Shown piece by piece: positions 1,904 to 18,639 of a DNA stretch of 19,160 nucleotides. A model generated the notes under the pieces. It was given only the letters and a program-made list of their open reading frames with translations, was not told the origin of the DNA and did not search any database. Origin of the DNA: Bermanella sp. Its GTDB lineage: Bacteria; Pseudomonadota; Gammaproteobacteria; Pseudomonadales; Oceanobacteraceae. The stretch is taken from the NCBI GenBank assembly GCA_036960565.1, contig JBALXQ010000013.1, positions 96,051 through 115,210 of the forward strand, given 5' to 3'. Within the stretch, counting starts at the first letter, position 1; each line of letters starts with the position of its first letter. A program made the position numbers and the translations under genes.

Positions 1904-3787
1904 ATGGCCGATCTTTCAGTACTTATGCCTATCATCATGGGCGTTGGACTTATTTTTGTTTTACTTATGGGAGTGGCATCACTCTTTAAATCTTTTTATA
2001 TAAAGGTAGATCAAGGCACAGCGTTAATTGTCAATGATATGAGTCATTCGCCTAAGGTTCATTTCACGGGTGCTTTGGTTTACCCCATTATAAATAAAAA
2101 AGAATTAATGAAAGTATCACTTATTACCTTGGAAGTTGACCGTCGTGGAAAAGACGGGCTTATTTGTGCTGATAATATGCGTGCCGACATCACTGTAGCC
2201 TTTTATTTACGCGTGAATGAAACCACCGAAGACGTTCTAAAAGTGGCTAAGTCAATCGGTGCTGATAGAGCGTCCGATAAAGATGCTGTAAATCAGTTAT
2301 TTAATGCCAAATTTTCAGAAGCCTTAAAAACCGTCGGTAAGCAAATTGAATTTGTTAATCTGTTTGAAAACCGTCAGGAATTTCGCGAGAAAATCATTGA
2401 AGTGATTGGCGATGACCTAAACGGTTACATACTTGAAGATGTTGCCATTGATTACCTAGAGCAAACTCCTAAATCATCTTTGGACCCTACAAATATCCTA
2501 GATGCTGAGGGTATTCGTAAAATCACCGAATTAACCGCTAAGCAAAATGTTCAAACCAACGATTTAGAACGTGACGAAGAATTGGCCATTAAGAAAAAGA
2601 ACGTTGAAACAGTAGAAGCGATGTTAGAGCTAGAGCGTCAGCAATCAGATGCCGAAGCCAAGCAAGAGCGTGAAATTGCAACGATTCGTGCACGTGAAGA
2701 AGCCGAAACTAAAAAGGTACAGGAAGAAGAACGCCTTAAAGCTGAAGGTACCACGATTCAAGTTAATCAGGACCTTGCGGTACAAACTGAAAATCAACAG
2801 CGTGAAATTGAAGTAGCTGAGCAAAATCGTCAACGTGCAGTGGCCATCGAGCAAGAAAAAGTAACTCGTGCTCGTGATTTAGAAATTGTTTCTCGTGAAC
2901 GAGAAGTAGACCTTCAAAGAATAGAAGCTGAAAAAGCCATTGAAATTGAGAAAAAAGAAATTGCGAATGTAATTCGTGAACGAGTGGTGGTCGATAAAAC
3001 CGTTGCGGTTGAAGAAGAGCGTATTAAAGAAGTGCGTGAAATTTCTGAAGCCGATCGAGATAAACAAACAAAAGTTCTCGCAGCCGAAGCTAAAGCCGAA
3101 GAAGAAAAGATTAAACAAGTGAAGGCGGCAGAAGCTGAAGAAATTTCAGCCAAACATAAAGCCATAGAAATCACCACATTGGCCCAGGCTGACTTAGAAG
3201 CCGTGGCTAAAGAAGCGGATGCTAAGAAAAAAATGGCTGAAGGCGTTCAAGCCGAGCGTGCTGCACCCGGTCTTGCCGATGCGAAAGTTCAGGAAGCGCG
3301 TGCTGATGCTCTTGAAAAAGAAGGTTATGCAGAAGCGAACGTTATTAAAGCTAAGGGAGACGCTGAAGCTGATGCCTTGTTAGGTACTGGCCGAGCTGCT
3401 GCAGAAGTGACTCGTGAGCAATTTAAAGCCGAAGCCGATGGCCTTGTTGATAAATTTGATGCCATGAACAACATGAGCGATCAAGCCCGTGACCACGAAG
3501 AGTATCGTATGGGTCTTGAAGTGGCATTGAAAGAAGCACTGGCCACCATTGAAGCTGGTAAAGAAATATCTAAAGAAAATGCTTCTGTTCTGGCGACCGC
3601 GCTTCAGAAAGCCAAAATTGATATTGTTGGTGGTGAAGAGCACTTCTTCGATAACTTTGCCAAGTCACTGTCTATCGGTAAAGCCGTAGATGGTTTAGCA
3701 CAGAAAAGTAGTGTGATATCAGGATTGATTAATAAGGTGGTGCAGCCTGCTGCAAAAACGACCAGTGATGAAAACGTGAAAGCCTAA
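1904..3787 (+). CDS. Flotillin-like SPFH/band-7 family membrane protein (YqiK-like) with long E/A/K-rich coiled-coil region
   Basis: N-terminal TM helix (LSVLMPIIMGVGLIFVLLMGVASLF). The SPFH core (VDQGTALIV...ITLEVDRRGKDGLICADNMRADITVAFYLRV) is followed by a ~280-aa EA-rich flotillin-type coiled coil. It is paired with the NfeD-like gene upstream. Confidence 0.8.
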   Translation: MADLSVLMPIIMGVGLIFVLLMGVASLFKSFYIKVDQGTALIVNDMSHSPKVHFTGALVYPIINKKELMKVSLITLEVDRRGKDGLICADNMRADITVAFYLRVNETTEDVLKVAKSIGADRASDKDAVNQLFNAKFSEALKTVGKQIEFVNLFENRQEFREKIIEVIGDDLNGYILEDVAIDYLEQTPKSSLDPTNILDAEGIRKITELTAKQNVQTNDLERDEELAIKKKNVETVEAMLELERQQSDAEAKQEREIATIRAREEAETKKVQEEERLKAEGTTIQVNQDLAVQTENQQREIEVAEQNRQRAVAIEQEKVTRARDLEIVSREREVDLQRIEAEKAIEIEKKEIANVIRERVVVDKTVAVEEERIKEVREISEADRDKQTKVLAAEAKAEEEKIKQVKAAEAEEISAKHKAIEITTLAQADLEAVAKEADAKKKMAEGVQAERAAPGLADAKVQEARADALEKEGYAEANVIKAKGDAEADALLGTGRAAAEVTREQFKAEADGLVDKFDAMNNMSDQARDHEEYRMGLEVALKEALATIEAGKEISKENASVLATALQKAKIDIVGGEEHFFDNFAKSLSIGKAVDGLAQKSSVISGLINKVVQPAAKTTSDENVKA

Positions 3788-3810: not shown

Positions 3811-3840
3811 AAAGGGCGCTTAGCGCCCTTTATTTCATTC
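3811..3840 (+). terminator. Rho-independent terminator or attenuator after the flotillin gene
   Basis: Stem aaagggcgc / gcgcccttt with loop tta (3811-3831), followed by tatttcattc. It lies only ~25 bp before the ATG of the giant ORF. Confidence 0.55.
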
Positions 3841-3863: not shown

Positions 3864-6800
3864 ATGGCACAGCCTAATGAACCTTCTGCTGCTGATAATC
3901 TTGTAGATGAAGCCGTTGCACAAGGAGGGGCTTATGAAATTATTCGTAAGCGCCTTGTGGAGCAGGGAAAGCAGTTAAACAGCGAAACCTCTCAATTAAA
4001 CCAAGCAAGACTTAAAGAATTTGGTGCCACGGATATTGATGTGGTGGCTCGGGTGCGAGTGCGCACAGAAAATAACTGCATTGCCCGAGATATTGTTCAG
4101 GTAGGCGAGCATCTATTATTTGGCTATAACGTTTTTATAGGCTTAAAAAAAGAAACTAAAATAGAAGATGTTTTTGCTCTGTTTGATGTAGTTGAGACAG
4201 ACGGCAACTTTGAAATGAAGCCTGTTTCTATGGCGGGTTCTTTTTTATCACAAAGTGGTTTTGTAAATGATTTTGAAGAACTGTACCGCTATTACAAACA
4301 TACCAAGCTTGTTCAGCTCACGATTAAAGGTGGCCGTTTATTGGCGGGCTTTCAAATTGGTGAACGTCTAGAAGATATTCGTGTTTTCCGCTGGTCTATT
4401 TCAGCAGACGGCAAAGATATTCAATATATTGATAACCGTGGCGAACGAGACATTCAGTTACCGCCTGCTTATGATTTTGAGTGGATAGAAACACATCGCG
4501 ATCACCGCATTAATGGTCGCCACCCTCACGTTAATATTCTAGATAAAATATTTGTAGAGACCATTAATGGCGATCTAACCATTAAGGTGGAAAACAATAC
4601 CGAGGATGGCTTTGGCATATACCGAGAGCCAGTAGAAGATAAATCTCAATCACTAGATGATGCAAAAATAAGTTATGCCCAGGTAGGCAGTCTTATATTA
4701 TTAAAAATACTGCCTTATCGCGAAGAGCAGTGGCGTTATCTTATTTTTAATACGACTACTCAAGACGTATTACGAGTGGATGCCATTGGTCAGTCTTGTG
4801 TTCAGTTGCCAGAAGATCACGGTATTATTTTCCCCGGTGGATACTACTTACAAAGCGGTGAATACAAGTCTTTTGATGGTGAAGAAAACAGCCTTACCTT
4901 TAAAAGGGCCATCAAGTCTCCAAATGGCGAAGATGTATTATTTGTATTTTACGACCCAGAAGAAGGTTCAGTAGGGTTATTCTTTTACAACCTAATTAAT
5001 AAAGAATTACAAAACCCTATATATGGGCACGGTTATGCCTTAGCTGAAGATGGCCGACTGGTTATTTTCTCAGCCGAAAACGAACCCACCCGCATTCATC
5101 CTATGCAAATCTGGTCAACACCTTATGTTAGCGATGAATACGCCAGTCAAATCCCAGCTAGCCAAACTTTCTTAGGGAAAATTGGTAATGCTGAATTGGT
5201 TCGCGGGGTATCGGATTTATACAGTGTTTACCGAATGCTGGAAAAACAAGATGTATCTTCTCGTTTATATGAGGAAATCAGCAAGTCGGCCAAAAAAATA
5301 TTTGATGATCACTATTGGATAGAAAGTAGCGACACCCAAGCGATATTTGATGCGTTAAAAAATATTGCTGCTACCTCAGAGCTTGTAATTGATGAATTTG
5401 AAAAAGTTCAGAGTATTCGTCAGCAGTCTGTTAAAGCATTATCGGATGCTCAAAAACAGCAACAATCAATTATTCAAGAAGTGCGCCCAGACAATTGGCA
5501 AACGGCAGAAGAATTTGTAGATGCGCTAGGAAAAATCCGTCGCCAGCGTGGCCATTTAATTACCATTAAAGAATACCGGTATATTGATGTCACCAAAATT
5601 GAGTCTTTAAATACCGATCTTACTAAGATTGAAGACTCGTTAAGTCGACAAACTGTATCCTTTTTATCAGATGAGAAAGCCATAGAGCCCTACCTTGATA
5701 AAATAGACAATATCAATAGAGAAATTGAGCAAGCCCAAACCATTGCCGTGCTTAACCCACTAATTGAAATAGTGGAAAGTACGGCATCTGGTTTAGATTT
5801 ATTGTCAGAATTAATGGGTTCGTTAAAAGTACAGGATCCTACGGTTCGCACTAAAATAATAGATGCTATTTCTCAAGTTTATTCTAAGCTGAATCAAACC
5901 AAAGCCCGTGCCAAGCACAAGCAAAAAGGTTTAGGCTCGGAAGAGGCCATTGCCCAGTTTGGTGCTCAGTTTAAACTGTTCTCGCAAAGTATTACCAACG
6001 CACTAGGCTTGGCCATCACGCCAGATAAATGTGATGAACAGCTATCTAGGTTGCTGGTGCAACTAGAAGAGTTAGAAAGCCAATTCAGTGATTTTGATCA
6101 GTTCATTGCCGACATTTTAGATAAGCGTGAAGAGATCTATGAATCCTTTGAAAGCCACAAACAAAGGCTGTTAGACGAGCAACAACGTAAAGCGCAGTCG
6201 GTGTTTGATGCCTCAAGTCGAATTTTGTCTAGCATAGAAAAGCGTTCACTTAAATTTAGTGAAAGTGATGAGCTAAATACCTACTTTGCCTCCGATTCAC
6301 TGGTCATGAAAATTCGTGAGCAAGCGGATGTATTGCGTGGCCTTGGCAGTGAAGTAAAAGCCGATGATATAGATGCGCGCTTTAAAGCCATTAAAGAACA
6401 AGCGATACGCTCCCTAAGGGATAAAAGCGATATCTATGAAGCCGGCGGCAGTATTATTAAACTGGGTTCACGGCATAAGTTTTCGGTCAATACTCAAGAA
6501 CTTGATTTAACGATCTTGCCAAAAAATGGCGAGCTGAATGTCCATTTAACGGGCACCAATTATTTTGAAGCCATTACCAAACCCCAGTTATTGGCATTAA
6601 AAGATTATTGGGAAATGTCTTCTGAATCTGAAACCCCTCAGGTCTATCGTTCAGAATATTTGGCATTTTTAATATTGCAGTCAGCGCGCTCTGGAGATTT
6701 TGGTCTTTCATTGGAACTATTGAATAATGCAATAGCCGATACAGATCAGCTTAATAAGCTAGTGCAAGAATTCGCGGCACCGCGCTACAAAGAAGGTTAT

Positions 6801-9158
6801 GAAAAAGGCGTTCATGATCACGATGCACAATTAATATTAAGCGCACTGGTGCCAGCCATAACACGGGCAGAAGAACTAAGTTTTGATCCCTTATGCCGTG
6901 CCGTCGCGCAAGTTTTTTGGGCTAACATTAAAGGCAAAGAAACGGGGCGCAAAACACTTAATGATAAACCTAGCGAGGGGTTATCTTATAGTACTTGGGC
7001 AGAGCGCGCTCAATCGGCCAAACAAATGCAATCGGTATTCTCAAGCACCGATGCGCTTAATTTGCTGGCTAAAGAGATTGAAGACGCTATCACGCAGTTT
7101 TTAGCCATTAACCCGATAGATGTCACGCCGTTGGATATTAAACGTGCTGCTGACTATTTGGTGGCTGAATTGTCTCGTGAACGTTTAGAATTTATATCCA
7201 GCAAATACGCCACTGAATTGGTTGAGGAGTTAAAGCGCTCTTTAGATGAAAGCTCTTGGCGTCAGTACCAAGGCGCGTTAAAAAAGATGTTGGGCTTTCC
7301 GGCTCAGCGTTGGAATTTAACCCGTGCTTGGTTAGAAGCATTAATACGAGACAAAAAGTTAGATCACCTGGCTCGTTATATTCCTGAAGCCATTGCATTA
7401 ATTAATGCCGATGAACGTATCTCTAGGCGCGCTACTCAAGCAGATCTTGAGTTAAATATTGAAGGTTTATTGGGAGATCACCGCACCATAGAAAGCCAAA
7501 AGCTATCGTTTGCTATAGATGCGTTTTTACAGCGACTAGAACACCATCAGCAAGTGGTAGTACCAGCTTATCAAGAATACTTAAAAGTAAGGCAAGACAT
7601 TATTGCAACCGAGCGAGCAGACTTAAAGCTGGAGTCCTTTAAGGCGCGGCCATTAAGTTCGTTTGTTAGAAACAGGCTGATTAACGAATCTTACCTGCCG
7701 CTCATTGGCGATAACTTTGCCAAGCAGATGGGCACAGTGGGGGATAATAAGCGTACCGACCTCATGGGTTTGTTAATGATGATCTCACCGCCTGGTTACG
7801 GTAAAACCACGCTCATGGAATATGTGGCCAGTAAGCTGGGTTTAATTTTTATGAAGATCAACTGTCCCTCTCTTGGGCACGATGTGTTGTCTCTTGATCC
7901 AGCACAAGCGCCTAATGCCACCGCTCGCCAAGAGTTAGAAAAACTCAACCTAGCGCTTGAGATGGGTGAGAATGTGATGTTGTATCTTGATGATATTCAG
8001 CACACCCATGCTGAGTTTTTACAAAAGTTTATTTCCTTGTGTGATGGTACTCGCCGTGTGGAAGGTGTGTGGAAGGGCGAACCCAAAACATACGACATGC
8101 GCGGCAAGAAGTTTAGCGTGGTCATGGCCGGTAACCCTTATACCGAATCGGGTGAAGCCTTTAAAATCCCCGACATGCTCGCCAACCGTGCAGACATTTA
8201 TAACCTAGGCGACATCCTTGGCGGAATGGATGAACAGTTTGCCTTAAGCTATATCGAAAACTCACTCACCTCCAACCAAGTGCTGGCGCCTCTCGCCACG
8301 CGTGAAACCAGCGATGTATACAAGTTAATTAGTTTGGCGCAAGGCGCAAACGTAGCGGCGACAGATTTAAAACACCAATACAGTGGTGCCGAAATTAATG
8401 AGATCACTCAAATATTTAAAAAAATGTTTGTGATTCAAGATGTGGTTCTGAAAATTAACATGCAATACATTGCCTCAGCCGGGCAAGATGATAAATACCG
8501 TACCGAGCCTTCGTTTAAATTACAGGGCAGTTATCGCAACATGAACAAGATGACCGAAAAAATTTCATCGGTTATGAATCATGATGAGTTAATGCAAATG
8601 ATCAATGATCATTACATTGGTGAAGCTCAGTTGCTTACAGCAGGGGCCGAGGGCAACCTGTTAAAACTTGCCGAACTGCGAGGCAATTTAACCCAAGAGC
8701 AAGACCTGCGCTGGAAACAGATTAAAAAGGACTTTTTAAGAAACAAAACCATGGGCGGTGATGACGCCGATGTAGGCGCTAAAGTAGTGGTGCAATTGGC
8801 TGACCTAGCCGAAGGCATGAAAAATATCAGTAATGCCGCACTTATGGCCGCTAAACAAAATGCCATTAAAAAGCCTGATGTTAACCAAGCACTGTCTAAT
8901 ACGTTAGAGCAGGGCATGGATAAACTATTAAAGGTGATTAAAGACAATAAACCTAATGTGGAAGTGGTTAATCAGCCGGTGCCGGGTATTGGAAAAATAT
9001 TAACGGTTTTGGCCGACACCATAGAACACAGTATTTTCCCTATTGTAAAAAGTATGGATAAAAAGCTCGATATCGATCTTAAAACTCATGAAAAAATGAA
9101 AGAAATTTCTGAGCAATTAAGAAACCTAGAAATAGATGCGGCCATTAAAAAACTATGA
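3864..9158 (+). CDS. Giant (1764-aa) uncharacterized protein: long N-terminal non-ATPase region and coiled-coil middle, with one AAA+ (AAA_5-like) ATPase module near the C-terminus
   Basis: Uninterrupted ORF with an AAGGA RBS 7 nt upstream. Walker A is MISPPGYGKTTLMEYV (~nt 7785-7812). Walker B is VMLYLDDIQH (~nt 7981-8001), DD rather than DE. A sensor-like VVMAGNPYTE...ANRADIY motif follows. No other recognisable catalytic motifs are seen by eye. Confidence 0.75.
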   Translation: MAQPNEPSAADNLVDEAVAQGGAYEIIRKRLVEQGKQLNSETSQLNQARLKEFGATDIDVVARVRVRTENNCIARDIVQVGEHLLFGYNVFIGLKKETKIEDVFALFDVVETDGNFEMKPVSMAGSFLSQSGFVNDFEELYRYYKHTKLVQLTIKGGRLLAGFQIGERLEDIRVFRWSISADGKDIQYIDNRGERDIQLPPAYDFEWIETHRDHRINGRHPHVNILDKIFVETINGDLTIKVENNTEDGFGIYREPVEDKSQSLDDAKISYAQVGSLILLKILPYREEQWRYLIFNTTTQDVLRVDAIGQSCVQLPEDHGIIFPGGYYLQSGEYKSFDGEENSLTFKRAIKSPNGEDVLFVFYDPEEGSVGLFFYNLINKELQNPIYGHGYALAEDGRLVIFSAENEPTRIHPMQIWSTPYVSDEYASQIPASQTFLGKIGNAELVRGVSDLYSVYRMLEKQDVSSRLYEEISKSAKKIFDDHYWIESSDTQAIFDALKNIAATSELVIDEFEKVQSIRQQSVKALSDAQKQQQSIIQEVRPDNWQTAEEFVDALGKIRRQRGHLITIKEYRYIDVTKIESLNTDLTKIEDSLSRQTVSFLSDEKAIEPYLDKIDNINREIEQAQTIAVLNPLIEIVESTASGLDLLSELMGSLKVQDPTVRTKIIDAISQVYSKLNQTKARAKHKQKGLGSEEAIAQFGAQFKLFSQSITNALGLAITPDKCDEQLSRLLVQLEELESQFSDFDQFIADILDKREEIYESFESHKQRLLDEQQRKAQSVFDASSRILSSIEKRSLKFSESDELNTYFASDSLVMKIREQADVLRGLGSEVKADDIDARFKAIKEQAIRSLRDKSDIYEAGGSIIKLGSRHKFSVNTQELDLTILPKNGELNVHLTGTNYFEAITKPQLLALKDYWEMSSESETPQVYRSEYLAFLILQSARSGDFGLSLELLNNAIADTDQLNKLVQEFAAPRYKEGYEKGVHDHDAQLILSALVPAITRAEELSFDPLCRAVAQVFWANIKGKETGRKTLNDKPSEGLSYSTWAERAQSAKQMQSVFSSTDALNLLAKEIEDAITQFLAINPIDVTPLDIKRAADYLVAELSRERLEFISSKYATELVEELKRSLDESSWRQYQGALKKMLGFPAQRWNLTRAWLEALIRDKKLDHLARYIPEAIALINADERISRRATQADLELNIEGLLGDHRTIESQKLSFAIDAFLQRLEHHQQVVVPAYQEYLKVRQDIIATERADLKLESFKARPLSSFVRNRLINESYLPLIGDNFAKQMGTVGDNKRTDLMGLLMMISPPGYGKTTLMEYVASKLGLIFMKINCPSLGHDVLSLDPAQAPNATARQELEKLNLALEMGENVMLYLDDIQHTHAEFLQKFISLCDGTRRVEGVWKGEPKTYDMRGKKFSVVMAGNPYTESGEAFKIPDMLANRADIYNLGDILGGMDEQFALSYIENSLTSNQVLAPLATRETSDVYKLISLAQGANVAATDLKHQYSGAEINEITQIFKKMFVIQDVVLKINMQYIASAGQDDKYRTEPSFKLQGSYRNMNKMTEKISSVMNHDELMQMINDHYIGEAQLLTAGAEGNLLKLAELRGNLTQEQDLRWKQIKKDFLRNKTMGGDDADVGAKVVVQLADLAEGMKNISNAALMAAKQNAIKKPDVNQALSNTLEQGMDKLLKVIKDNKPNVEVVNQPVPGIGKILTVLADTIEHSIFPIVKSMDKKLDIDLKTHEKMKEISEQLRNLEIDAAIKKL

Positions 9159-9194
9159 ATAAACAACTAGCCCAATACCTAGTGAGTAAAGGAT

Positions 9195-10043
9195 ATGCTT
9201 AATTGGTGTAGGCAGTTAATTCATCGCCTTTTTTCAAGCTCGGTAATTGATACGCCGCTATTAAAGGGCCAGTGGTCACCAGATTGGAGTGAGTTTTTAA
9301 AAGACACTGTCGCTTTTTATAAGGATTTATCAAATAGCGATCAAGACCTTTTTAATAGGCGTGTCTTTTTATTCTTGCAAACCACCAGTGTGGAGTCTTC
9401 GTACAGTGACGTCACCGATGAAGATAAATTGTTGGTGGCTGCCAGTGCCATTATTCCAGTTTGGGGTTTCATAGATTGGCATTACTTTAATTTAAAGGCG
9501 GTACACCTATTACCGGCATCCTTTAATGACAAGTTTGAATGTTATCAGGCCGACTCGCAAATAACCGGCATGGTGGGCACGGGCGCCATGAATGGCAAGA
9601 TGGCGCTAAGCAAACCGGCGCTTTATCAGGGTTTTAGTAATAGTCGTGATAAACAAAATGTAGGCATTCATGAGTTTGTTCACTTAATTGATATGAGCGA
9701 TGGTGAGTGTGATGGTTACCCTGAACGCTTAAAAGAGTTTTCCTTTTCAATTCCTTGGTTTGAACTGGTCGGGCGAAAAATTAAAGCCATTAAAGACAGC
9801 GACAGTAATATTCGTGAATACGGGGCTACAAATCGCCAAGAGTTTTTTGCGGTGGCGTCAGAATATTTTTTTGAACGCCCAGATATGCTTAGCCGTAAAC
9901 ACCCCAAGCTATATAAATCGCTAAGTGATTTTTACCAACAAGACATTAAAAATATAGGCAATGATATAAAGCCCAAGAAGAAGGCACCTTGCCCATGTGG
10001 CAGTGGTAAGCGTTATAAACATTGTTGTATGCCAGCACGCTAA
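9195..10043 (+). CDS. MtfA-like (peptidase M90 family) HExxH zinc-dependent peptidase with C-terminal SEC-C-type zinc-binding motif
   Basis: IHEFVHLIDMSDGECDGYPE and ...NRQEFFAVASEYFFERPDMLSRKHPKLYKSLSDFYQQD closely resemble the E. coli MtfA core (IHEVAHKLD...ECFAVLSEYFFSAPELF...FYQQD). The extreme C-terminus CPCGSGKRYKHCC is a SEC-C motif. A good RBS (AAAGGA) is present. Confidence 0.7.
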   Translation: MLNWCRQLIHRLFSSSVIDTPLLKGQWSPDWSEFLKDTVAFYKDLSNSDQDLFNRRVFLFLQTTSVESSYSDVTDEDKLLVAASAIIPVWGFIDWHYFNLKAVHLLPASFNDKFECYQADSQITGMVGTGAMNGKMALSKPALYQGFSNSRDKQNVGIHEFVHLIDMSDGECDGYPERLKEFSFSIPWFELVGRKIKAIKDSDSNIREYGATNRQEFFAVASEYFFERPDMLSRKHPKLYKSLSDFYQQDIKNIGNDIKPKKKAPCPCGSGKRYKHCCMPAR

Positions 10044-10077
10044 AAACACCATTTAAAATAAGAAGTGATAAAAAATA

Positions 10078-10611
10078 ATGAACTGCCCACAATGCAAAGG
10101 CTACACCCTAGAGCCCACAGAGATTGAACCCGGTTTAGTGGCGGGCAGTTGCAGTAAATGTAAGGGCAGCTTGTTGTCTTTAATGAATTACCGCTTCTGG
10201 GCGGACAGGCAGGCTTCTGTGGAAAAACCCACCGAACCTATGCCGGTGGCGGAAGATAATCAAAAGGCCCTCGCTTGCCCCAAGTGCACACGCTTAATGA
10301 CCAAGTTTAAAGTGGGCAGCCAAACCACCCACCGAATAGATTTATGCACAGGCTGTGATGAAGCTTGGTTAGATAACGGCGAATGGTCTTTGCTTAAGCA
10401 GTTAGATCTACACGATAAGTTGCCGAAGATATTCACCGATGCCTGGCAGCGCAATATTCGTATTAAACGCCAACAAGATTTTATAGATGATAAGTATCAG
10501 GCTTTACTGGGGCTGGAAGATTTTGAGCGACTATCAAGTTTTAAAAAGTGGTTAGATGAACAGCCGCATAAAGAAGATATTAAGCAATATCTTATCAATA
10601 AGCCCAGTTAA
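10078..10611 (+). CDS. Double zinc-ribbon (zf-TFIIB-like) domain protein
   Basis: The pairs CPQC...CSKC and CPKC...CTGCDEAWLDNGEW match the 'transcription factor zinc-finger' pattern (C-P-x-C...idvC..C.g.WlD.gE). Last gene of the + strand cluster before the bidirectional terminator. Confidence 0.6.
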   Translation: MNCPQCKGYTLEPTEIEPGLVAGSCSKCKGSLLSLMNYRFWADRQASVEKPTEPMPVAEDNQKALACPKCTRLMTKFKVGSQTTHRIDLCTGCDEAWLDNGEWSLLKQLDLHDKLPKIFTDAWQRNIRIKRQQDFIDDKYQALLGLEDFERLSSFKKWLDEQPHKEDIKQYLINKPS

Positions 10612-10641
10612 CAAAACTAGCTAACGTTAAACAGCAGACAT

Positions 10642-10669
10642 AAAAAAACGGCTATTAAGCCGTTTTTTT
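10642..10669. terminator. Bidirectional rho-independent terminator between the convergent zinc-ribbon gene (+) and fdxA (-)
   Basis: Perfect 11-12 bp stem aaaaaaacggc / gccgttttttt with loop tattaa. Both strands get an A/T run on the correct side. Confidence 0.8.
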
Positions 10670-10717
10670 ATGCACAGTATGAAGCGGGCATTAATGCATG
10701 CCCTAATTAAGCGTGGA

Positions 10718-11041
10718 CTATCTTTCCAAGTGCTTAATCTTACCTTCAACACCATCCCACTCTTCGGCGTCGGCAAGTTTCTCTTTCATTTCTGTGATGT
10801 TTGGCCAAATTTCAGCTAGCTCAGCATTTAGCTCGGTAAACTTCTCTTGTCCTGCTGGCACTTCATCTTCGCTGAAGATGGCTTCTGCTGGACATTCTGG
10901 CTCACACAAAGCGCAATCGATGCACTCGTCAGGGTGAATTACCAAAAAGTTAGGGCCTTCGTAGAAACAGTCTACAGGGCACACTTCAACACAGTCTGTG
11001 TATTTACACTTGATGCAGTTATCAATAACAACGAAGGTCAT
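10718..11041 (-). CDS. fdxA: 7Fe ferredoxin (Azotobacter-type ferredoxin I), [3Fe-4S][4Fe-4S]
   Basis: [55 protein letters not shown] is the canonical FdxA cysteine pattern. 107 aa. Conserved convergent neighbour of mutS in many gammaproteobacteria. Confidence 0.9.
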
Positions 11042-11210
11042 GGTCTTTTCTCTGTCTCATCGGCGCTATGATAGCTGCGCTCTGTTTTAATCTTGTGGAC
11101 ACTTTCTGGGCGGCTATTCTAGTGATGCAGCCCAGATTGAGCAAGTGTTTGGCCCAATTCTTAATATAGCGGGCCTTTTAAAAAGGCCGCCAAGGTACCT
11201 GATTTTACCG

Positions 11211-11236
11211 TTTTGTAAAAGGTGCTTTTAAGCACC
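11211..11236 (-). terminator. Probable intrinsic terminator downstream of mutS
   Basis: Stem ggtgct/agcacc (loop ttta) at 11221-11236. On the minus-strand transcript it is followed by UUUUACAAAA (reverse complement of 11211-11220). A second hairpin ggcctttt/aaaaggcc at 11173-11189 lacks a U-tract. Confidence 0.4.
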
Positions 11237-11355
11237 CTAGTACAATTATCTGTGTACTTTATACGCTTTTTATCTATAGCTTTAAAATCGTTTAAAGTAA
11301 TGAATCTAATCTATTTACTGAATTAACGATTATGATCAAAAGTACCTGCTAAAAC

Positions 11356-14052
11356 CTACAGTTTTGCCTTTAGTTCATAGAGTAGTTCAAGTGCTTGGCG
11401 CGGGCTTAAATCATCTGGGCTAATCTCTTTAAGCGCTTCTTCTACTTTAGAAGGTGCCGCCATAGCAAACATATCGCCTTGCGGAGAGAGTGCTTGCGGT
11501 GAAGGTTTAGTTGCCTTAGCGGGCTTCACATCGCTGGCAGGCTCTTCAACTTTTTTAACCACCGCAATAGCTGCCTGTTGCTCAGCCTCAACACTGCCGT
11601 CTTCTAGCATTACCAGTTTAGATTTGGCCTGATCAATTACTTCAGTGGGCACACCCGCTAACTTGGCCACTTGTAAACCATAGCTTTGGCTAGCTGGGCC
11701 TTCTTCCACGTGGTGCATGAAAATAATATGGTCATTGTGTTCGGTGGCGGTAAGGTGAACATTCACCACGTCGTCATCTAAGTCGGCTAACTGGGTCATC
11801 TCAAAATAGTGAGTGGCAAACAAGGTGTAAGCACTCACTTTACTTACTAGGTGCTGAGCACAAGCCCAGGCTAAAGATAAACCATCAAAGGTGCTGGTAC
11901 CGCGGCCCACTTCATCCATTAATACCAGGCTGTGTTCGGTGGCGTTATGCAAGATATTCGCGGTTTCGGTCATTTCCACCATGAAGGTAGAGCGGCCACC
12001 GGCTACATCGTCGCTAGAACCCATGCGGGTAAATATTCGGTCAATCAGGCCAATAGTGGCAGCCTCGGCAGGTACATAACTGCCAATGTGAGCCATTAAC
12101 ACTATGTGCGCGGTTTGACGCATATAGGTCGATTTACCACCCATGTTCGGGCCGGTAATCATTAGCATTTTGCGCTGTGGGTTAAACGCCACATCGTTGG
12201 CCACAAAGGGATCTTCAATTACCGCTTCTACTACCGGGTGGCGACCCTGGGTAATGTTAAAGCCGGTATCGGTATTTAATACTGGGCGCACATAGTTTTG
12301 AGTCACGGCGCGCTCGGCCAAATTCGACAATACATCCAGCTCGCTAATGGCGGCGGCAGTGACTTGTAGATCGGCAATTTGTTGCGCCAAGGCTTCTACA
12401 ATTTCTTCGTAAAGTGCTTTTTCACGGGATAACGCACGGCTCTTGCTAGATAGAGCCTTGTCTTCAAATTCTTTTAATTCAGGGGTAATAAAGCGTTCGG
12501 CGTTTTTAAGCGTTTGCCTGCGTACATATTCAACCGGCGCTTTGTCCGACTGCGCCTTGCTGATCTCAATGAAATAACCGTGCACACGGTTGTAGCCCAC
12601 TTTTAAGGTGCTAATGCCGGTGGCGGCACGTTCGCGGGTTTCTATATCAATTAAGAACTGGCCCGCGTTTTCACTTAAACCGCGTAATTCATCTAGTTCG
12701 CTATCAAAGCCTTCGGCTATTACGCCGCCGTCACGCACCACTACCGGTGGGTTTTCAATAATGGCTTTTTGTAAATTGGCCACGGTTTCTGGGTAGGTGC
12801 TAATTTGCTTGCCCAGCATGGCAACGGGGGCGGCATCTACTTCGTTAATGGCGTTTTGCAAACTTGGCAGAGTAGCCAGTGCATCACGTAGGCGGGCTAA
12901 ATCGCGTGGGCGTGCCGAGCGTAATGCAATGCGGCTTAAGATACGTTCTATGTCACCAATTTGCTTTAACACGCTGTGGATATTTTCATAACCGTAGCTG
13001 TCTATCATGGCGCTAATGGCCAGTTGGCGATCGTTTAACACACTGTGATCGCGCAGCGGCCTATTTAACCAGCGGCGCAATAATCGGCTGCCCATAGAAG
13101 TGGCAGTACGATCTAGCACCCAGGCTAGGGTGAAGTCGCTGTCGCCATTAAGGTTAATGTCTATTTCTAAATTCTTACGGCTGGCCGCATCCATCACGAT
13201 GGAGTCGTCGGCTTGTTCAACCATAATGGTGCGAATATGGGGTAACTCGGTACGCTGGGTTTCTTGTGCGTAGTGAATAAGGCTACCGGCGGCTTCAATG
13301 CCTTGCTGTAAATCTTGGCAACCAAAACCGTGTAAATCTTTAGTTTGAAATTGCTGCGTTAATAGACGGAATGCGGTTTCAAATTCAAACTCCCATGGTG
13401 GCAGCTTCTGGCAACCACTGCGCTCGCTAATGGCGCTTGGGTATTCTTTGTCTTCACTAATAAGTAACTCGGCAGGGCGGAGGCGCTGTAATTCAGCTTC
13501 TAGCGCTTCTTCGCTGGATACTTCCATCATGGTAAAGCGGCCAGAGCTAATGTCTAAACTGGCAATGCCGTGATTTTGTTTTTGGGTGCGGCCATCTATG
13601 TGTGTGCTTACCGCCACCAACAAAGAATCACGCTTTTCGTCTAGAAAGCTCTCATCGGTCAGGGTACCTGGGGTAATAACCCTAACCACTTTGCGCTCAA
13701 CCGGGCCCTTGCTGGTGGCAGGGTCACCTATTTGCTCAACCACCGCCACGCATACACCCATTTTCACAAGCTTGGCAATGTAGCCCTCGGCACTATGATA
13801 CGGAATACCGGCCATGGGAATGGCGTTGCCACCGGTTTTACCACGGGCGGTAAGGGTGATATCCAGTAGGCGGGAGGCTTGTCTGGCGTCGTCATGAAAC
13901 ATTTCATAAAAATCGCCCATGCGATAAAAAACCAAGTGGTTTTTATGCTCGGCCTTAATGCGATTATATTGCTGCATCATGGGCGTCTCTGCGGGTTTAG
14001 CAGATGGTTTAGCGGCCTTTGATTTGTTTGTGGGTTTAGCTACGTTTGTCAT
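11356..14052 (-). CDS. mutS: DNA mismatch repair protein MutS
   Basis: Conserved [14 protein letters not shown]...[11 protein letters not shown] mismatch-binding N-terminus. Walker [22 protein letters not shown]-signature region and the usual C-terminal dimerisation tail. The 898-aa product is longer than typical because of a ~25-aa Lys/Ala/Pro-rich N-terminal extension before the conserved PMMQQY. Confidence 0.95.
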
Positions 14053-14387: not shown

Positions 14388-15890
14388 TTACTCTCGCCGA
14401 TTGTGGTTTGATCCAAAGGGCTTAGTCTGCTTGTGTTTAGAATCAGGGTGATTGGCGGTAGCGCCATGTGTGCGTTTTGATTCAAAGGGCTTAGTCTTCC
14501 TGTTTTCAGGTCCTGGGTAAACAGGGGTAACGCCATGTGAATACTCCTCAAGCCTTTTCACTAAAAGCGTGTGATTGGCAGTTGAGATGTCAGCCAATTT
14601 ACTCACCATTCTAATTTCACTGTCTAAATACAAATCAGCCGATACTTCCTTAATGACAGATAAGATTGAAGACAAAGCTTCATCACAAAACCTTAAATAA
14701 ATTTTCATTAGTTGCCTGCCCCCTAAACCCGTATCTTGAAAATACAGATCAAGGTCGGATCGTTTTATCTCTTGTACACATCGTACTGCCCCAAAATTCA
14801 TGGCCATTAGATGCTCCAACGGATATACCTGCGTTGAGACCAAATCATAGGCGGGCGTGAGTGTTAAGCGGCCGTTGTCTAAATGCAGGAATGAAAAATT
14901 CTTGGCATGGGCATCATCGTTACCGCAAATAATGCTAAAAAATATTCTGAAACCGCATTCTTGCAAATCCTTAATAGGTAACGTGCTCTTGTCTCTAATG
15001 GTGGTAAATAATTCTTTAATTCCGGGTCCAGCTTTATACCCCGGCATTCCGGTATCTGTATTCATTTCATATTTACTGCCAGGGGGAAAACCGCATATTT
15101 GGCAAAGGTCTTCTTGATGAATACGTTCAATATGGCCGCCCGAAATCTTACGGTCGTATCTTTCTACCAATAAGGCAGTGTCTTCATCACCATCGGCGTT
15201 GTGGTAATCCAGTAATGTGACAGGGGCAACCGTTAAACCTGATCGGGCCGCGGCAGTCATGCAAATATACTCATTAATCACAAGGTAGGGGAACTCTTTA
15301 TCGTTACGTGGAGGCTTAATGATATGAGTGGAAGGCTGGTCTAGGGAGTCATAAAAATTTAGGTTTCCATCATCATTTATTTCCACAAATACAGGCAGCT
15401 TAGGCTGGGCCCCGGCCAGACTCATACGCGTTCTATTTGGAGTTCCGTCTTCTTTATGATTTTTATCATTTACGTGAAATGGATTAACTTCAATCTTGTT
15501 AATGAGGTTGCTTAGCTGGGTTTCATTTAGTTTTTTAGATTGGCCTAAAGCCGGTTTTAAATAGTCTTGTGGGAACAATTCAATGGCACCGGCGAAATCC
15601 CCACCCATCACTTCAATTAAACGCTGAATATCCTCTGAGTTTAAACGCAGAATTTTTTCAATTCGCTCCATAACCTTTCCTTCGGGGAAGAGGTTGCTTA
15701 AAAATATGAAGGTTTCTTTATTGTTATAGGCTTCACTTCTAATAGGAAACCGCACAGACAATATAGGTGTGCCTGCCACAGCATTATCAACGTAATCTTT
15801 TGAATATTGGAAGGCCATAGTGGCGTCGTCATTAAACGTTAGTTGCCCTACGTTTTTTGACAGAAGGTAAACATCAAATACAGCACTCAT
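14388..15890 (-). CDS. HipA-like Ser/Thr protein kinase toxin (HipA N-terminal plus catalytic domains) with a repeat-derived C-terminal tail
   Basis: MSLAGAQPKLPVF (HipA P-loop-like motif) and catalytic-loop GNDDAHAKNFSFL (DxHxKN). ~450-aa HipA-sized core plus a ~48-aa tail encoded by a ~65-bp tandem duplication. The start codon overlaps the upstream HTH stop (ATGA). Confidence 0.8.
   Translation of the reverse strand: MSAVFDVYLLSKNVGQLTFNDDATMAFQYSKDYVDNAVAGTPILSVRFPIRSEAYNNKETFIFLSNLFPEGKVMERIEKILRLNSEDIQRLIEVMGGDFAGAIELFPQDYLKPALGQSKKLNETQLSNLINKIEVNPFHVNDKNHKEDGTPNRTRMSLAGAQPKLPVFVEINDDGNLNFYDSLDQPSTHIIKPPRNDKEFPYLVINEYICMTAAARSGLTVAPVTLLDYHNADGDEDTALLVERYDRKISGGHIERIHQEDLCQICGFPPGSKYEMNTDTGMPGYKAGPGIKELFTTIRDKSTLPIKDLQECGFRIFFSIICGNDDAHAKNFSFLHLDNGRLTLTPAYDLVSTQVYPLEHLMAMNFGAVRCVQEIKRSDLDLYFQDTGLGGRQLMKIYLRFCDEALSSILSVIKEVSADLYLDSEIRMVSKLADISTANHTLLVKRLEEYSHGVTPVYPGPENRKTKPFESKRTHGATANHPDSKHKQTKPFGSNHNRRE
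14405..14540. repeat. Imperfect ~65-bp tandem duplication (ttgatYcaaagggcttagtct...gcgccatgtg) inside the 3' end of the HipA-like ORF
   Basis: Two consecutive similar units are read directly. They encode the KTKPFESKRTHG / KQTKPFGSNHNR repeats in the predicted C-terminus. Confidence 0.5.
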
Positions 15891-16294
15891 GTTTTAAACT
15901 CCATTTTCACACCCAGTGTATGCAAGGCGACTAAAACCTTATCTAGCATCAGTGTTGGCTTGTTAGCTTCAAGATTTGATATGAACTTAGTAGAGAGGCC
16001 ACTAAACCCTGCAAGTGATGCCTGTGTAAAGCCGAGAACCGACCTGCTTTCTTTTACTAATTTACCAAGGTCAATATCTTTGCTGATAGGGTGCAAACGA
16101 ATACCAAGGGTAGAGGTAAGGGCTAAAACTTTATCGAGTTGAACACTTGTTTTACCGCATTCAAATTGCGAGATAAATTTTACGCTTACATTTGCATACA
16201 TTGATACGGTGGCCTGATCTAAACCCAGCTCCTTTCTCCTTTGATTGCAAAGCAACCCTAGATAGCTGGCATCATGTGTTTGTTCAAAAAACAT
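15887..16294 (-). CDS. Tandem-XRE (two helix-turn-helix domains) transcriptional regulator, HipB-like antitoxin partner
   Basis: Two XRE-type HTH units: LGLDQATVSMYANVSVKFISQFECGKTSVQLDKVLALTSTLGIRL and LGFTQASLAGFSGLSTKFISNLEANKPTLMLDKVLVALHTLGVKM. ATG at 16294 is preceded by GAGGGA. The longer track ORF to 16381 would be read through the operator repeats and is rejected. The stop overlaps the hipA-like ATG. Confidence 0.7.
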   Translation of the reverse strand: MFFEQTHDASYLGLLCNQRRKELGLDQATVSMYANVSVKFISQFECGKTSVQLDKVLALTSTLGIRLHPISKDIDLGKLVKESRSVLGFTQASLAGFSGLSTKFISNLEANKPTLMLDKVLVALHTLGVKMEFKT

Positions 16295-16317
16295 AAATCC
16301 CTCAATAGGCGTTAGTT

Positions 16318-16490
16318 TTACCGTACGGACATATCTTACACATAATAGCTGGAGTTGGCAGGGGTTTAACCGTACGTACATATCTTATATTAAATAGAGC
16401 GAATTTGATGTGAATATAACCGTACGTACATATTTTGTATGAAATAGGGAGGTATGGAGCTGATTTTACCGTACGGACATATTATCGGGT
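16318..16490. promoter_or_regulatory. Array of four ~20-bp direct repeats (TWACCGTACGKACATATYTT) spaced 49-50 bp, covering the promoter and 5' region of the HTH/HipA-like operon
   Basis: The CCGTACG cores start at 16321, 16370, 16420 and 16469. Each contains a CCGTACGG or GTACGTAC palindromic core. The first unit lies ~27 bp upstream of the HTH start codon. Probable operators for the tandem-HTH repressor. Confidence 0.55.
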
Positions 16491-16581: not shown

Positions 16582-16873
16582 CGCAATGGCGCAATGACGC
16601 TAAGGGGTGGTGTTAAGTGTTGGCGTTAAATGGTGGCGTGTTGAGTGGGCGCTGCCCTTGATTTAGGTCATTACCTTAATGTTAAGAACGGTAAATCCCA
16701 CATGGAAGAGTTGGAGAAATAGCATACAAGTCTGTATAAAGGTGTGGATTTGGGAAAACGTACCAGTTTTGGGCGATTTTTCTTCGGTATTCAATATTAA
16801 GTATCAGGCCAAAATGAACGGCGCTGCTCTGCTTAAACACGAGTGGTTTGCTTAGGTTGGAGTGGTTGGGTAC

Positions 16874-17296
16874 ATGGATATAAAGCACTTAGGCGAAGCT
16901 GCTAAGCCCTGCCCATTTTGCCAGATTTTTGCTGGCACCATTAATAAAGAAATACTGTTCGAAAACGAAACAGGCTTTGTAGTACGTGATGGCTTCCCCA
17001 TTACCAAAGGCCACACCCTAGTTATCCCCAAGCACCATGTGGGCAGCTTTTTTAAAATTACTCAGCAACAGCGCCAAGACTTGTTTGCCCTAATAGACCT
17101 AGCCAAAGTCCAGCTTGATAAAGAATTCCAGCCTGAAAGTTACAACATAGGCATAAACGATGGTGAAGCCGCAGGGCAAACCATCCCCCATTTACACATA
17201 CACCTAATTCCCCGTTATACAGAAGCAGGCAAAGACCCACGCGGTGGTGTGCGCTGGTTGGTGCCTGAAAAAGCCGACTATTGGAGCAATCCATGA
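16874..17296 (+). CDS. HIT (histidine triad) family nucleotide hydrolase/transferase
   Basis: Histidine triad motif IPHLHIHLIPR. The KGHTLVIPKHHV region matches the HIT fold. ~140 aa. The track ORF starts at a GTG (16862). The in-frame ATG at 16874 is preferred. The stop overlaps the next gene's ATG. Confidence 0.75.
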   Translation: MDIKHLGEAAKPCPFCQIFAGTINKEILFENETGFVVRDGFPITKGHTLVIPKHHVGSFFKITQQQRQDLFALIDLAKVQLDKEFQPESYNIGINDGEAAGQTIPHLHIHLIPRYTEAGKDPRGGVRWLVPEKADYWSNP

Positions 17297-18639
17297 GCTT
17301 AACCTCTTATCTAGCGGCTTTTTCCAAAATTAAAATGAACGCATCCACGGGCCATAGCAGCCCACATAAAGCGTGTTTGCTACTCGCCATTATGGATTTA
17401 GTGGCAAAAGAGCGTATTGCCAATAACCGCATTTTTTTAAATGACGAACTTACGCAGCACTTTAACCAACACTTTAGCCAAGTGGCCCAAGCCAGTGATA
17501 AAGCCGATATAAGTCAGCCGTTTTTCTATTTGCAGTCATCCAGCTTTTGGCATCACAAAGTTATCGCCAGTTTCGCGCAAGAATATAAACAACGCACAGC
17601 CCCCAAGCAGCGCAATCATGGCGGTATTAACAAAGTAAACCAGCTTATTCAATACGCCCATGTAGACCCCGAATTGTTTGAATACTTTAAAAGCCATACC
17701 GCCCGCGAAGCACTCACCCAAACACTATTAAGTAAGCTAAATTCCCAGCAACAACAAAAGCTACTTATACCAGCCAATGGTTGGAACTGGCATGAGTGTG
17801 AACTTATCGTAAACGACTATTTTGAAATGCTGGCACAAGAACTAAAGGGCAAAAATTACAATAAAGCGCAGCATAATCGCGACCTAGTGCAAGCCATGAA
17901 TGAAAGCCGAAATAGAAGTGCCATTGAGAACAAGCACCAAAATATCAGCGCTATATTAAATGAAATGAGAATGCCCATTATTGATGGCTATAAGCCCCTC
18001 AGTAATTACCAGCGTAATATCCTGCCCGATGTCATTGGTGCAACCTTGGCGCAGCGCCAAGATATTCATAAGCTTATTAAGCAAATAAACCAACAGCCTG
18101 TGGCAGTGCCCACGGTAAAAAACATACTGGATGCATTGGTAGCAACACCCCAAGCCAAAAAAGCGCCCACCAAAAAGAACCAGCAAGCAGAAAAAAGGGC
18201 GCAATACGATGTAAAGCCCTATCCACTGCCTAAAAAAGATTACCTAGCGCAAGAAGCCGTAAACCAAGCGTTAGGCCTAAAGGGTGAAGAATATGTACTT
18301 AACTACGAAAAAGCGCGCTTAATCCTAGCTGGAAAAGAAACCCTAGCCGACAAAATAGAGCACCTAAGCCTAGAAGATGACCGCTACGGTTACGACATTC
18401 ACTCGTACAGTAACAACGGCCAAGACCGCTTAATAGAAGTAAAAACCACCAATTACGACCGTTATACTCGGTTTTATGTGAGCCCCAACGAGTTAAACGT
18501 GTCCAATAAACGGGGGCAAGACTACCACCTATACCGTGTATTTAATTTCAGCACCGCCCCCCAACTATTTATTAGCCAAGGCAGTTTAGAAAGCGGGTAC
18601 AATCTCGCCCCATCTGCCTACGCCGCAAACATAAAGTGA
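17293..18639 (+). CDS. Uncharacterized protein with C-terminal DUF3883-like PD-(D/E)xK nuclease-fold domain, and an N-terminal domain of unknown family
   Basis: C-terminal YDIHSY...(N)...DRLIEVKTT...YHLYRV fits a D...ExK restriction-endonuclease-like core, as seen in DUF3883 domains common in R-M and defence loci. ATG 17293 overlaps the HIT stop (ATGA). The track start at 17281 is a TTG. Confidence 0.6.
   Translation: MSLTSYLAAFSKIKMNASTGHSSPHKACLLLAIMDLVAKERIANNRIFLNDELTQHFNQHFSQVAQASDKADISQPFFYLQSSSFWHHKVIASFAQEYKQRTAPKQRNHGGINKVNQLIQYAHVDPELFEYFKSHTAREALTQTLLSKLNSQQQQKLLIPANGWNWHECELIVNDYFEMLAQELKGKNYNKAQHNRDLVQAMNESRNRSAIENKHQNISAILNEMRMPIIDGYKPLSNYQRNILPDVIGATLAQRQDIHKLIKQINQQPVAVPTVKNILDALVATPQAKKAPTKKNQQAEKRAQYDVKPYPLPKKDYLAQEAVNQALGLKGEEYVLNYEKARLILAGKETLADKIEHLSLEDDRYGYDIHSYSNNGQDRLIEVKTTNYDRYTRFYVSPNELNVSNKRGQDYHLYRVFNFSTAPQLFISQGSLESGYNLAPSAYAANIK

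Follow-up and report, generated by a model that had tools for sequence, protein, structure and literature searches.

A giant AAA+ ATPase encoded behind a YqiJ/flotillin pair in Bermanella: an abbreviated member of a PspA-associated operon family with a peptidase and zinc-ribbon tail

Introduction

What does a soluble ATPase of 1764 residues do when it is encoded directly behind a flotillin? This question is raised by a 19,160-nt stretch of Bermanella sp. DNA (contig JBALXQ010000013.1, positions 96,051 to 115,210; the whole stretch is called the window here). Its + strand carries five co-directional genes for, in order, a YqiJ/NfeD-like protein, a flotillin, the giant ATPase, an M90/SEC-C peptidase, and a double zinc-ribbon (ZnR) protein. 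A first-pass annotation of the window had treated the last three genes as a unit to which the membrane pair was attached, knew of no described system with this combination, and offered membrane-microdomain remodeling or defense as possible functions. Here, we find that the locus is an abbreviated member, without the PspA dyad, of a PspA-associated flotillin/giant-AAA+ operon family, and that it carries a peptidase/ZnR tail.

Results

The conserved core of the operon

All five gene calls held up, with the three open reading frames (ORFs) that follow the membrane pair at the coordinates given here:

1149/1176 to 1841, + strand: YqiJ/NfeD-like inner-membrane protein with three transmembrane (TM) segments and a C-terminal beta domain, ~221–230 residues, assigned by hhalign match to YqiJ
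1904 to 3787, + strand: YqiK-type flotillin, 627 residues, assigned by hhalign match to YqiK
3864 to 9158, + strand: giant ATPase, soluble, 1764 residues, assigned by Pfam domains
9195 to 10043, + strand: M90-family (MtfA-like) zinc peptidase ending in a SEC-C zinc knuckle, 282 residues, assigned by Pfam
10078 to 10611, + strand: soluble ZnR protein, two zinc ribbons (each CxxC...CxxC), C-terminal half helical, 177 residues, Zn_ribbon_TFIIB matched twice

We surveyed 80 species-level loci with giant homologues (43–93% identity), plus plasmid and metagenome loci (locus numbers carry the prefix L below), taking frequencies from tblastn and ORF clustering and confirming accessory genes by Pfam. 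The nearest public relatives were Bermanella metagenome-assembled genomes; one Bermanella protein was 100% identical to the window flotillin, and the giant of L001 shared 93% identity with that of the window. The flotillin gene lay directly upstream of the giant on the same strand in 75 of the 77 loci with enough flank, an adjacency that is not due to chance. A YqiJ-like gene preceded the flotillin in 67 of 76 loci by tblastn, with further ones recovered by clustering, and stood at position −2 relative to the giant in 59 of 76.

This triad was collinear in at least five phyla (Gammaproteobacteria, Myxococcota, Bacteroidota [Hymenobacter], Actinomycetota [Streptomyces], and Deinococcota). The same order was seen in Cellvibrionales, Oceanospirillales, Vibrionaceae, Gilliamella, Psychrobacter, Proteus, Dyella, and Myxobacteria, as well as on a Hymenobacter plasmid, Streptomyces linear plasmids, and Deinococcus megaplasmids. 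Because of these frequencies and the order kept across groups, we conclude that the conserved unit is YqiJ-flotillin-giant. The boundary drawn in the first-pass annotation therefore has to be moved: its proposed check of gene neighborhoods came out as expected for the flotillin, whereas the peptidase and ZnR genes were seldom found beside the giant. Genes downstream of the triad were distributed as follows:

TelA: 27 of 73 loci
PLD: 26 of 73 loci
Double ZnR: 16 of 73 loci
Rhomboid: 13 of 73 loci
77-residue protein: 10 of 73 loci
M90: 6 of 73 loci
MscS-like protein: 2 of 73 loci

Upstream, a dyad of YjfI (DUF2170, CesT/Tir) and PspA_IM30 was present in 28 of 70 loci. On the pQBR103 megaplasmid of P. 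fluorescens SBW25 (L084, 84437–97641), a co-directional 10-gene array places a complete polyamine/PspA set resembling E. coli yjfIJKLMC (YjfI, PspA, DUF2491, DUF350, DUF1190, and a glutathionylspermidine-synthase-like protein) and a rhomboid gene upstream of the triad. No YjfI-PspA dyad was found in the Bermanella relatives.

The core has been described before. Ravi et al. (2024; mSystems 9:e00847-23, PMC11237479; preprint under a 2020 bioRxiv DOI) reported, in silico, a class of PspA neighborhood composed of a CesT/Tir-PspA dyad, a 3-TM YqiJ/YuaF protein, a band-7/flotillin protein, and a “beta-propeller + coiled-coil + AAA-ATPase” protein; a layout given there matches that of the Hymenobacter plasmid locus. 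The same study noted that abbreviated operons without the CesT/Tir-PspA dyad are more widespread, recorded PLD in some Proteobacteria, and read the operon as a sub-membrane chaperone/remodeling machinery. Our contexts were recovered independently, and the three core proteins, their order, and their architectures are the same in the window: it has the flotillin, the 3-TM YqiJ/YuaF-type protein, and the propeller and AAA features of the giant. It differs from the published operon in having neither the CesT/Tir-PspA dyad nor PLD and in having additional M90/SEC-C and double-ZnR genes. The statement that no such system had been described was thus mistaken, and the window is an instance and extension of a known association rather than a new kind of system, since the core was already published in silico. 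In the main text of PMC11237479, we found neither a peptidase of any kind (MtfA included) nor the double-ZnR protein, rhomboid, TelA, or the 77-residue protein, and a tail made up of peptidase, ZnR, rhomboid, and TelA genes appears to be undescribed.

The YqiJ/flotillin membrane pair

Domain libraries were silent on the two upstream proteins of the window. The flotillin had no Pfam match, either for the window protein at E = 10 or among 22 orthologues; the YqiJ-like window protein had none at E = 10; and no NCBIfam model matched either protein. Their identity was therefore drawn from hhalign comparisons with E. coli K-12 proteins. The family of the 627-residue protein matched YqiK (hhalign 99.9%, E 1.2e-34, 30% identity over 418 columns), and the YqiJ-like family (22-sequence alignment) matched YqiJ (hhalign 90.7%, E 1.3e-6). 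Together with the TM predictions, these matches identify the upstream genes as an NfeD/flotillin pair of the YqiJ/YqiK type, as had first been proposed. The flotillin profile also matched Flotillin-2 (9l3g, E 0.0056), and orthologues of the window flotillin bear the name “YqiK” at JGI. Some YqiJ-like orthologues gave weak, sub-threshold matches to the YqiJ_N and NfeD Pfam models, and a PDB match to YuaF was likewise weak.

Hydropathy predicted three hydrophobic segments in the YqiJ-like protein (residues 14–32, 77–95, and 117–135), one N-terminal TM segment in the flotillin (residues 6–24), and none in the giant, the peptidase, or the ZnR protein. The flotillin continues with a divergent SPFH/band-7 domain (~31–200), a long E/A/K-rich stretch of coiled-coil composition (~201–520, 49% charged), and a flotillin-like C-terminus. 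The start of the YqiJ-like gene is likely GTG 1149 or ATG 1176 after inspection of start codons; the mechanical ORF begins at TTG 1110.

The E. coli YqiJ-YqiK and B. subtilis YuaF-FloT pairs are homologous and share the layout, in which the first protein combines TM segments with a C-terminal beta domain and the second runs TM-SPFH-coiled-coil-flotillin. The window pair has diverged beyond the reach of the Pfam Band_7 and NfeD models, and the E. coli yqiJK locus, unlike the window, has no giant ATPase downstream. Across the operon family, the flotillin and YqiJ-like proteins escape Pfam Band_7, Flotillin, and NfeD and all NCBIfam models, and most database records of their orthologues read “hypothetical protein.”

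Architecture of the giant ATPase

The giant runs from an N-terminal helix through a beta-propeller, helical bundles, and a long helical middle to a single AAA_5-like module, a conserved C-terminal domain, and a variable tail. Its parts lie as follows:

3975 to 5315, + strand: DUF3686, residues 38–484 (Pfam E 8.6e-207)
4038 to 5117, + strand: predicted beta-propeller forming the core of DUF3686, residues 59–418, ~26 strands, 6–7 blades (AlphaFold2 and Foldseek)
5133 to 5963, + strand: predicted helical-bundle region, residues 424–700 (AlphaFold2 model)
5676 to 5927, + strand: DUF7902, residues 605–688, inside the helical-bundle region (Pfam)
7614 to 8813, + strand: highly conserved block, residues 1251–1650, enclosing the AAA+ core (alignment)
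7767 to 8144, + strand: single AAA+ core, residues 1302–1427 (Pfam AAA, AAA_22, and AAA_5)
7785 to 7814, + strand: Walker A, SPPGYGKTT (motif inspection)
7977 to 8003, + strand: Walker B, MLYLDDIQH (motif inspection)

The N-terminal region had been described only as globular. PDB sequence and profile searches found no relative for residues 1–700, and AlphaFold2 modeled this region from a diverse 70-sequence alignment with pLDDT 89.8 and pTM 0.79 (model m956c067ab7f2). The model consists of a helix (23–53), a beta region (59–418), and further helices (424–700). A Foldseek search against the PDB gave 91 matches at E ≤ 1e-3; among the 50 matches listed, most were beta-propeller proteins, including Elp1, CyRPA, prolyl oligopeptidase, paraoxonase, the clathrin N-terminal domain, and Ski8 (TM-scores 0.13–0.33, identity ~10%). 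In this prediction, DUF3686 folds as a beta-propeller with helical bundles after it, and “globular region” gives way to that description.

An HMM search of the giant, which the first-pass annotation had proposed, returned DUF3686, DUF7902, and one AAA module, in agreement with the single AAA_5-like P-loop module read from its motifs; the whole protein contains one P-loop. All motifs named in that annotation were found, in the giant (GYGKTT, LYLDDIQH, AGNPY, NRADIY) and in the two smaller proteins (HEFVH, CPCGSGKRYKHCC, and four CxxC pairs). AAA_5 (PF07728) covered profile positions 2–125 of 139 in 28 of 28 orthologues (best E 8e-9; 26–29 bits vs a cut-off of 22), whereas the match to PF00004 was limited to the first half of the profile (positions 2–69 of 131). 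Sensor-1 MAGNPY and NRADIY are both present in the core. A helix, a probable hairpin, MAGNPY, and NRAD after Walker B provisionally place the module in the MoxR/dynein type, a clade assignment that is provisional because PDB profile matches cover just the P-loop.

The giant family is large, with more than 6128 homologues in 90% clusters and 944 representatives at 50% identity clustering, mostly of 1600–1900 residues. The protein is conserved along its full length except for the last ~110 residues, which are variable or missing, and residues 1251–1450 reached a mean identity to the window of 0.77–0.88 among 74 aligned sequences.

Both RefSeq records and Pfam, in its description of DUF3686, use the name “DNA repair ATPase,” which suggests a different function, in which the giant would act in DNA repair with genes of the mutS/recA region and the membrane proteins would be incidental. 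Some contexts fit: fdxA and mutS lie downstream in the Bermanella block (window 10718–14052); in five Vibrio loci (L044, L046, L064, L068, and L069), the block sits between mutS and cinA-recA-recX; and a LexA-family regulator is encoded upstream in Hymenobacter and Dokdonia. However, Pfam and NCBIfam searches found no DNA-binding, nuclease, or helicase domain, the N-terminus consists of the predicted propeller and helical bundles, and most loci have no mutS adjacency, whereas flotillin adjacency is near universal. No paper in the searchable literature mentions DUF3686 or PF12458 or links DUF3686 to repair. With no supporting domain and no consistent context, we rejected this explanation as highly improbable. 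As a matter of speculation, the name may have been born of the mutS adjacency.

The peptidase and zinc-ribbon tail

The peptidase matched Peptidase_M90 (PF06167, E 8.9e-57) and SEC-C (E 2.2e-7), and the third protein matched Zn_ribbon_TFIIB in two stretches (C3/C6/C25/C28 and C67/C70/C90/C93), so that both first-pass domain assignments stand. The HExxH residues of the peptidase (H159, E160, and H163), together with E223/E227 and the SEC-C cysteines C266/C268/C277/C278, were retained in ≥90% of the 26 orthologues compared, and this conservation suggests that the peptidase is probably catalytically competent. E. coli MtfA shares the Peptidase_M90 family and an intact HExxH with it; unlike in MtfA, a SEC-C knuckle lies outside the M90 domain match, and the genomic context is different. 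Orthology to MtfA was rejected, as the NCBIfam equivalog NF011939 scored 46.8 bits vs a cut-off of 400, leaving membership in the M90 family alone.

How closely do these two genes belong to the system? They could form an independent two-gene module that, in some marine Gammaproteobacteria, happens to be co-transcribed downstream of the triad but plays no mechanistic part in the flotillin/ATPase system. M90 was found in just 6 of the 73 species-level loci; its orthologues are frequent in marine Gammaproteobacteria, where one sampled orthologue lay in a full operon (L090), and at 66–68% identity, they stood alone in L088 and L089, outside the operon. In L129 (9074–10423), an M90/SEC-C gene (69% identity) directly precedes a divergent double-ZnR gene (33%), and neither a flotillin nor a giant gene is present within 9 kb; the M90 and ZnR genes are thus able to form a free-standing dyad. 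ZnR homologues at 40–45% identity occurred in unrelated contexts, which were uninformative, as was the context of the lone dyad.

However, when the comparison was reversed in metagenomes, ZnR homologues at ≥52% identity on contigs with visible neighbors were nearly all in the operon tail, and M90 stood beside the giant in many metagenome loci as well. The order giant-(rhomboid)-M90-ZnR-(77-residue gene)-(PLD) was kept over giant identities of ~66–97%, and the fullest form, PspA-YqiJ-flotillin-giant-rhomboid-M90-ZnR-77aa-PLD, was seen in L099, L110, and L115. The gaps between giant and peptidase (36 nt) and between peptidase and ZnR (34 nt) are short and hold no terminator-like site, and PMC11237479 notes that the PspA/band-7 ydj operon of B. 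subtilis also has ZnR-containing partners. An independent module is therefore a live possibility but an unlikely one. We conclude that M90 and ZnR are lineage-restricted accessory genes, with ZnR tightly and M90 facultatively tied to the system.

In the closest relatives, ZnR is followed by the 77-residue gene (L001 10355–10588; L081 16775–17008; also L096 and L097), which gave a weak TerB-like match (E 0.09). The window does not have this gene, and the terminator comes directly after ZnR.

Transcription signals

Two structures bear on how the five genes are expressed:

3811 to 3831, + strand: GC-rich hairpin then T-rich stretch, after the flotillin stop codon and before the giant start codon; terminator-like, 9-bp stem with 6 GC pairs
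10638 to 10673, no strand: bidirectional intrinsic terminator; perfect 16-bp stem flanked by A7 and T7

A single transcription unit ending in a perfect bidirectional terminator had been proposed. The terminator is as described and is shared by the operon and the convergent fdxA gene. The flotillin-giant intergenic region is predicted to fold at dG −21.1 kcal/mol (z −2.7), and hairpins that differ in sequence lie at this position in loci of Cellvibrionaceae and Gilvimarinus (including L004 and L006). Since the hairpin has counterparts with different sequence in other lineages, it suggests a partial terminator or attenuator that would hold ATPase levels below those of the scaffold, and expression may be uneven across the five genes.

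The ~1.1 kb before the operon (1–1100) contained no convincing ORF, just an odd 82-residue ORF on the − strand, and a terminator-like hairpin of 13 bp at 645–675. In the relative L081, a DEAD-box helicase gene and a 78-residue ORF lie upstream of the operon. An Rfam scan of the window gave no match.

Genomic neighborhood and the defense alternative

Two further gene groups flank mutS in the window. An apparent hipBA-type toxin-antitoxin pair lies beside it on the − strand (14388–16381), in which a HipA-like kinase (500 residues; HipA_C and Couple_hipA) overlaps a 164-residue protein with two helix-turn-helix domains (Y4mF/HipB-type antitoxin). Farther along, on the + strand (16862–18639), the gene for a HIT-family protein (ThsC-like by PADLOC, E 2.4e-15) shares 16 nt with that of a 452-residue NOV_C protein, which matches the PADLOC candidate PDC-S36 (E 7.6e-89) and PD-T4-1. 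The HIT/NOV_C pair is a probable small defense module on the far side of mutS. This far side differs between the window and the 93% relative L081, which suggests that the mutS flank is variable.

Such surroundings raise the possibility, also offered in the first-pass annotation, that the operon itself serves in phage defense or conflict. Phage-induced membrane perturbation would then be sensed by the flotillin/YqiJ pair, the giant would transduce the signal, and the peptidase (or PLD/TelA elsewhere) would be the effector. PLD and TelA partners occur in phage-resistance contexts. The operon is also patchy within genera, is carried on megaplasmids and plasmids (pQBR103, Deinococcus, Streptomyces, and Hymenobacter), stands one gene group away from hipBA and the PDC-S36/HIT (ThsC-like) pair, and sits in the variable mutS flank.

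Still, we found no positive support for a defense function. PADLOC-DB v2 was silent on the YqiJ-like protein, the flotillin, the giant, and ZnR, and it matched M90 solely via the 20-residue SEC-C; 50,697 phage records contained zero homologues. Conservation across genera was unusually high (giant 66–75% identical over 1764 residues, flotillin ~80%), unlike that of typical fast-evolving defense genes, and the association with PspA/YjfI and polyamine genes speaks for a role in housekeeping stress physiology instead. We therefore regard a defense role as quite unlikely.

Discussion

We read the locus, with moderate confidence, as a PspA-type envelope-stress and membrane-remodeling module, and we place much less confidence in any specific substrate of the giant. 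The linkage to PspA/YjfI (28 of 70 loci) and the membrane theme of the accessory genes (TelA, PLD, rhomboid, and MscS-like) favor this reading. The earlier suggestion of membrane-microdomain remodeling we judge to have been correct. PMC10936438 cites work showing that the localization of B. subtilis PspA requires an SPFH protein and that HflK/C assembles into a cage.

A mechanism can be sketched on this basis. YqiJ and the flotillin would together build an SPFH scaffold or cage at the inner membrane, on its cytoplasmic side. The giant would dock onto this scaffold via its propeller and helical arms while oligomerizing through its AAA+ module. With energy from ATP, it could then build up, reshape, or take apart the flotillin polymer, and likewise the PspA/ESCRT-III-like polymer in loci that have one, in a role analogous to that of Vps4 on ESCRT-III or FtsH inside HflK/C. 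Alternatively, it may extract client proteins in envelope stress. The hairpin after the flotillin gene may lower ATPase expression relative to the scaffold. In the Bermanella lineage, the M90/SEC-C peptidase and a double-ZnR adaptor were probably added at the 3′ end and would provide regulated proteolysis or an adaptor/titration step.

Comparison with known machines sharpens this sketch. Like HflK/C-FtsH, the operon pairs an SPFH scaffold with an AAA+ ATPase, and many of its loci also encode a protease, be it rhomboid, M90, or both. Unlike FtsH, the giant is AAA_5-like and has neither a TM segment nor a fused M41 protease (Peptidase_M41 was not found by Pfam), so the relation is one of analogy, not homology. 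The likeness to Vps4/ESCRT-III lies in the genomic coupling of an AAA+ ATPase to a PspA/ESCRT-III-like polymer in 28 of 70 loci, and a remodeling role for the PspA-coupled ATPase was proposed in PMC11237479. However, the giant has no MIT domain, its ATPase is not Vps4-like, and PspA is absent from the window. The ATPase core itself resembles MoxR/AAA_5 ATPases with VWA partners, such as RavA-ViaA, in its near end-to-end AAA_5 match and the NP...R pattern after Walker B. Yet no VWA protein is among the called proteins of the window, the partners are different, and the giant is about five times the size (1764 vs ~300–500 residues), with a propeller and helical arms.

Several points weigh against the envelope-stress reading. 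No pspA or yjfI ORF lies within 1.1 kb upstream in the window, and the physical interaction between giant and flotillin is proposed from synteny alone. PDB profile searches with the ATPase region returned P-loop matches alone. An AlphaFold model of the flotillin was discarded because pLDDT fell below 50 across the SPFH domain (residues 32–205), its alignment being shallow (48 sequences, 81–97% identity). Because M90 orthologues and the M90-ZnR dyad also exist outside the operon, the role of these two proteins in the flotillin/ATPase system may be loose. The patchy distribution, megaplasmid carriage, and variable mutS flank would also fit an accessory or conflict function. Finally, no experiment on any member of the operon family was found in the searchable literature; a study of P. 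aeruginosa SPFH proteins (PMC13086221) does not include this operon family in its content.

A more specific version of the membrane-remodeling reading is doubtful but worth stating. The giant could be an ATP-driven disassemblase/extractase docked on a flotillin/YqiJ cage, forming with M90/SEC-C or rhomboid and the ZnR adaptor an SPFH-AAA+-protease quality-control hub. The mitochondrial SLP2-PARL-YME1L (SPY) complex combines an SPFH scaffold, an AAA+ machine, and a protease. Such a hub, if true, would parallel both HflK/C-FtsH and the SPY complex while being built from unrelated parts, and the peptidase/ZnR/rhomboid tail suggests that the module recruits proteolysis, as in SPFH-protease partnerships elsewhere.

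The names “DNA repair ATPase” and “hypothetical protein” amount to an annotation gap for this operon family. We know of no energy-consuming remodeling partner for bacterial flotillins or for most PspA/ESCRT-III-like proteins. On the doubtful, more specific version given above, the giant could also be the missing “Vps4-like” motor of bacterial flotillin and PspA polymers. Nearly always encoded beside a flotillin in at least five phyla, it is an obvious candidate for the remodeling ATPase, and this open problem is now testable.

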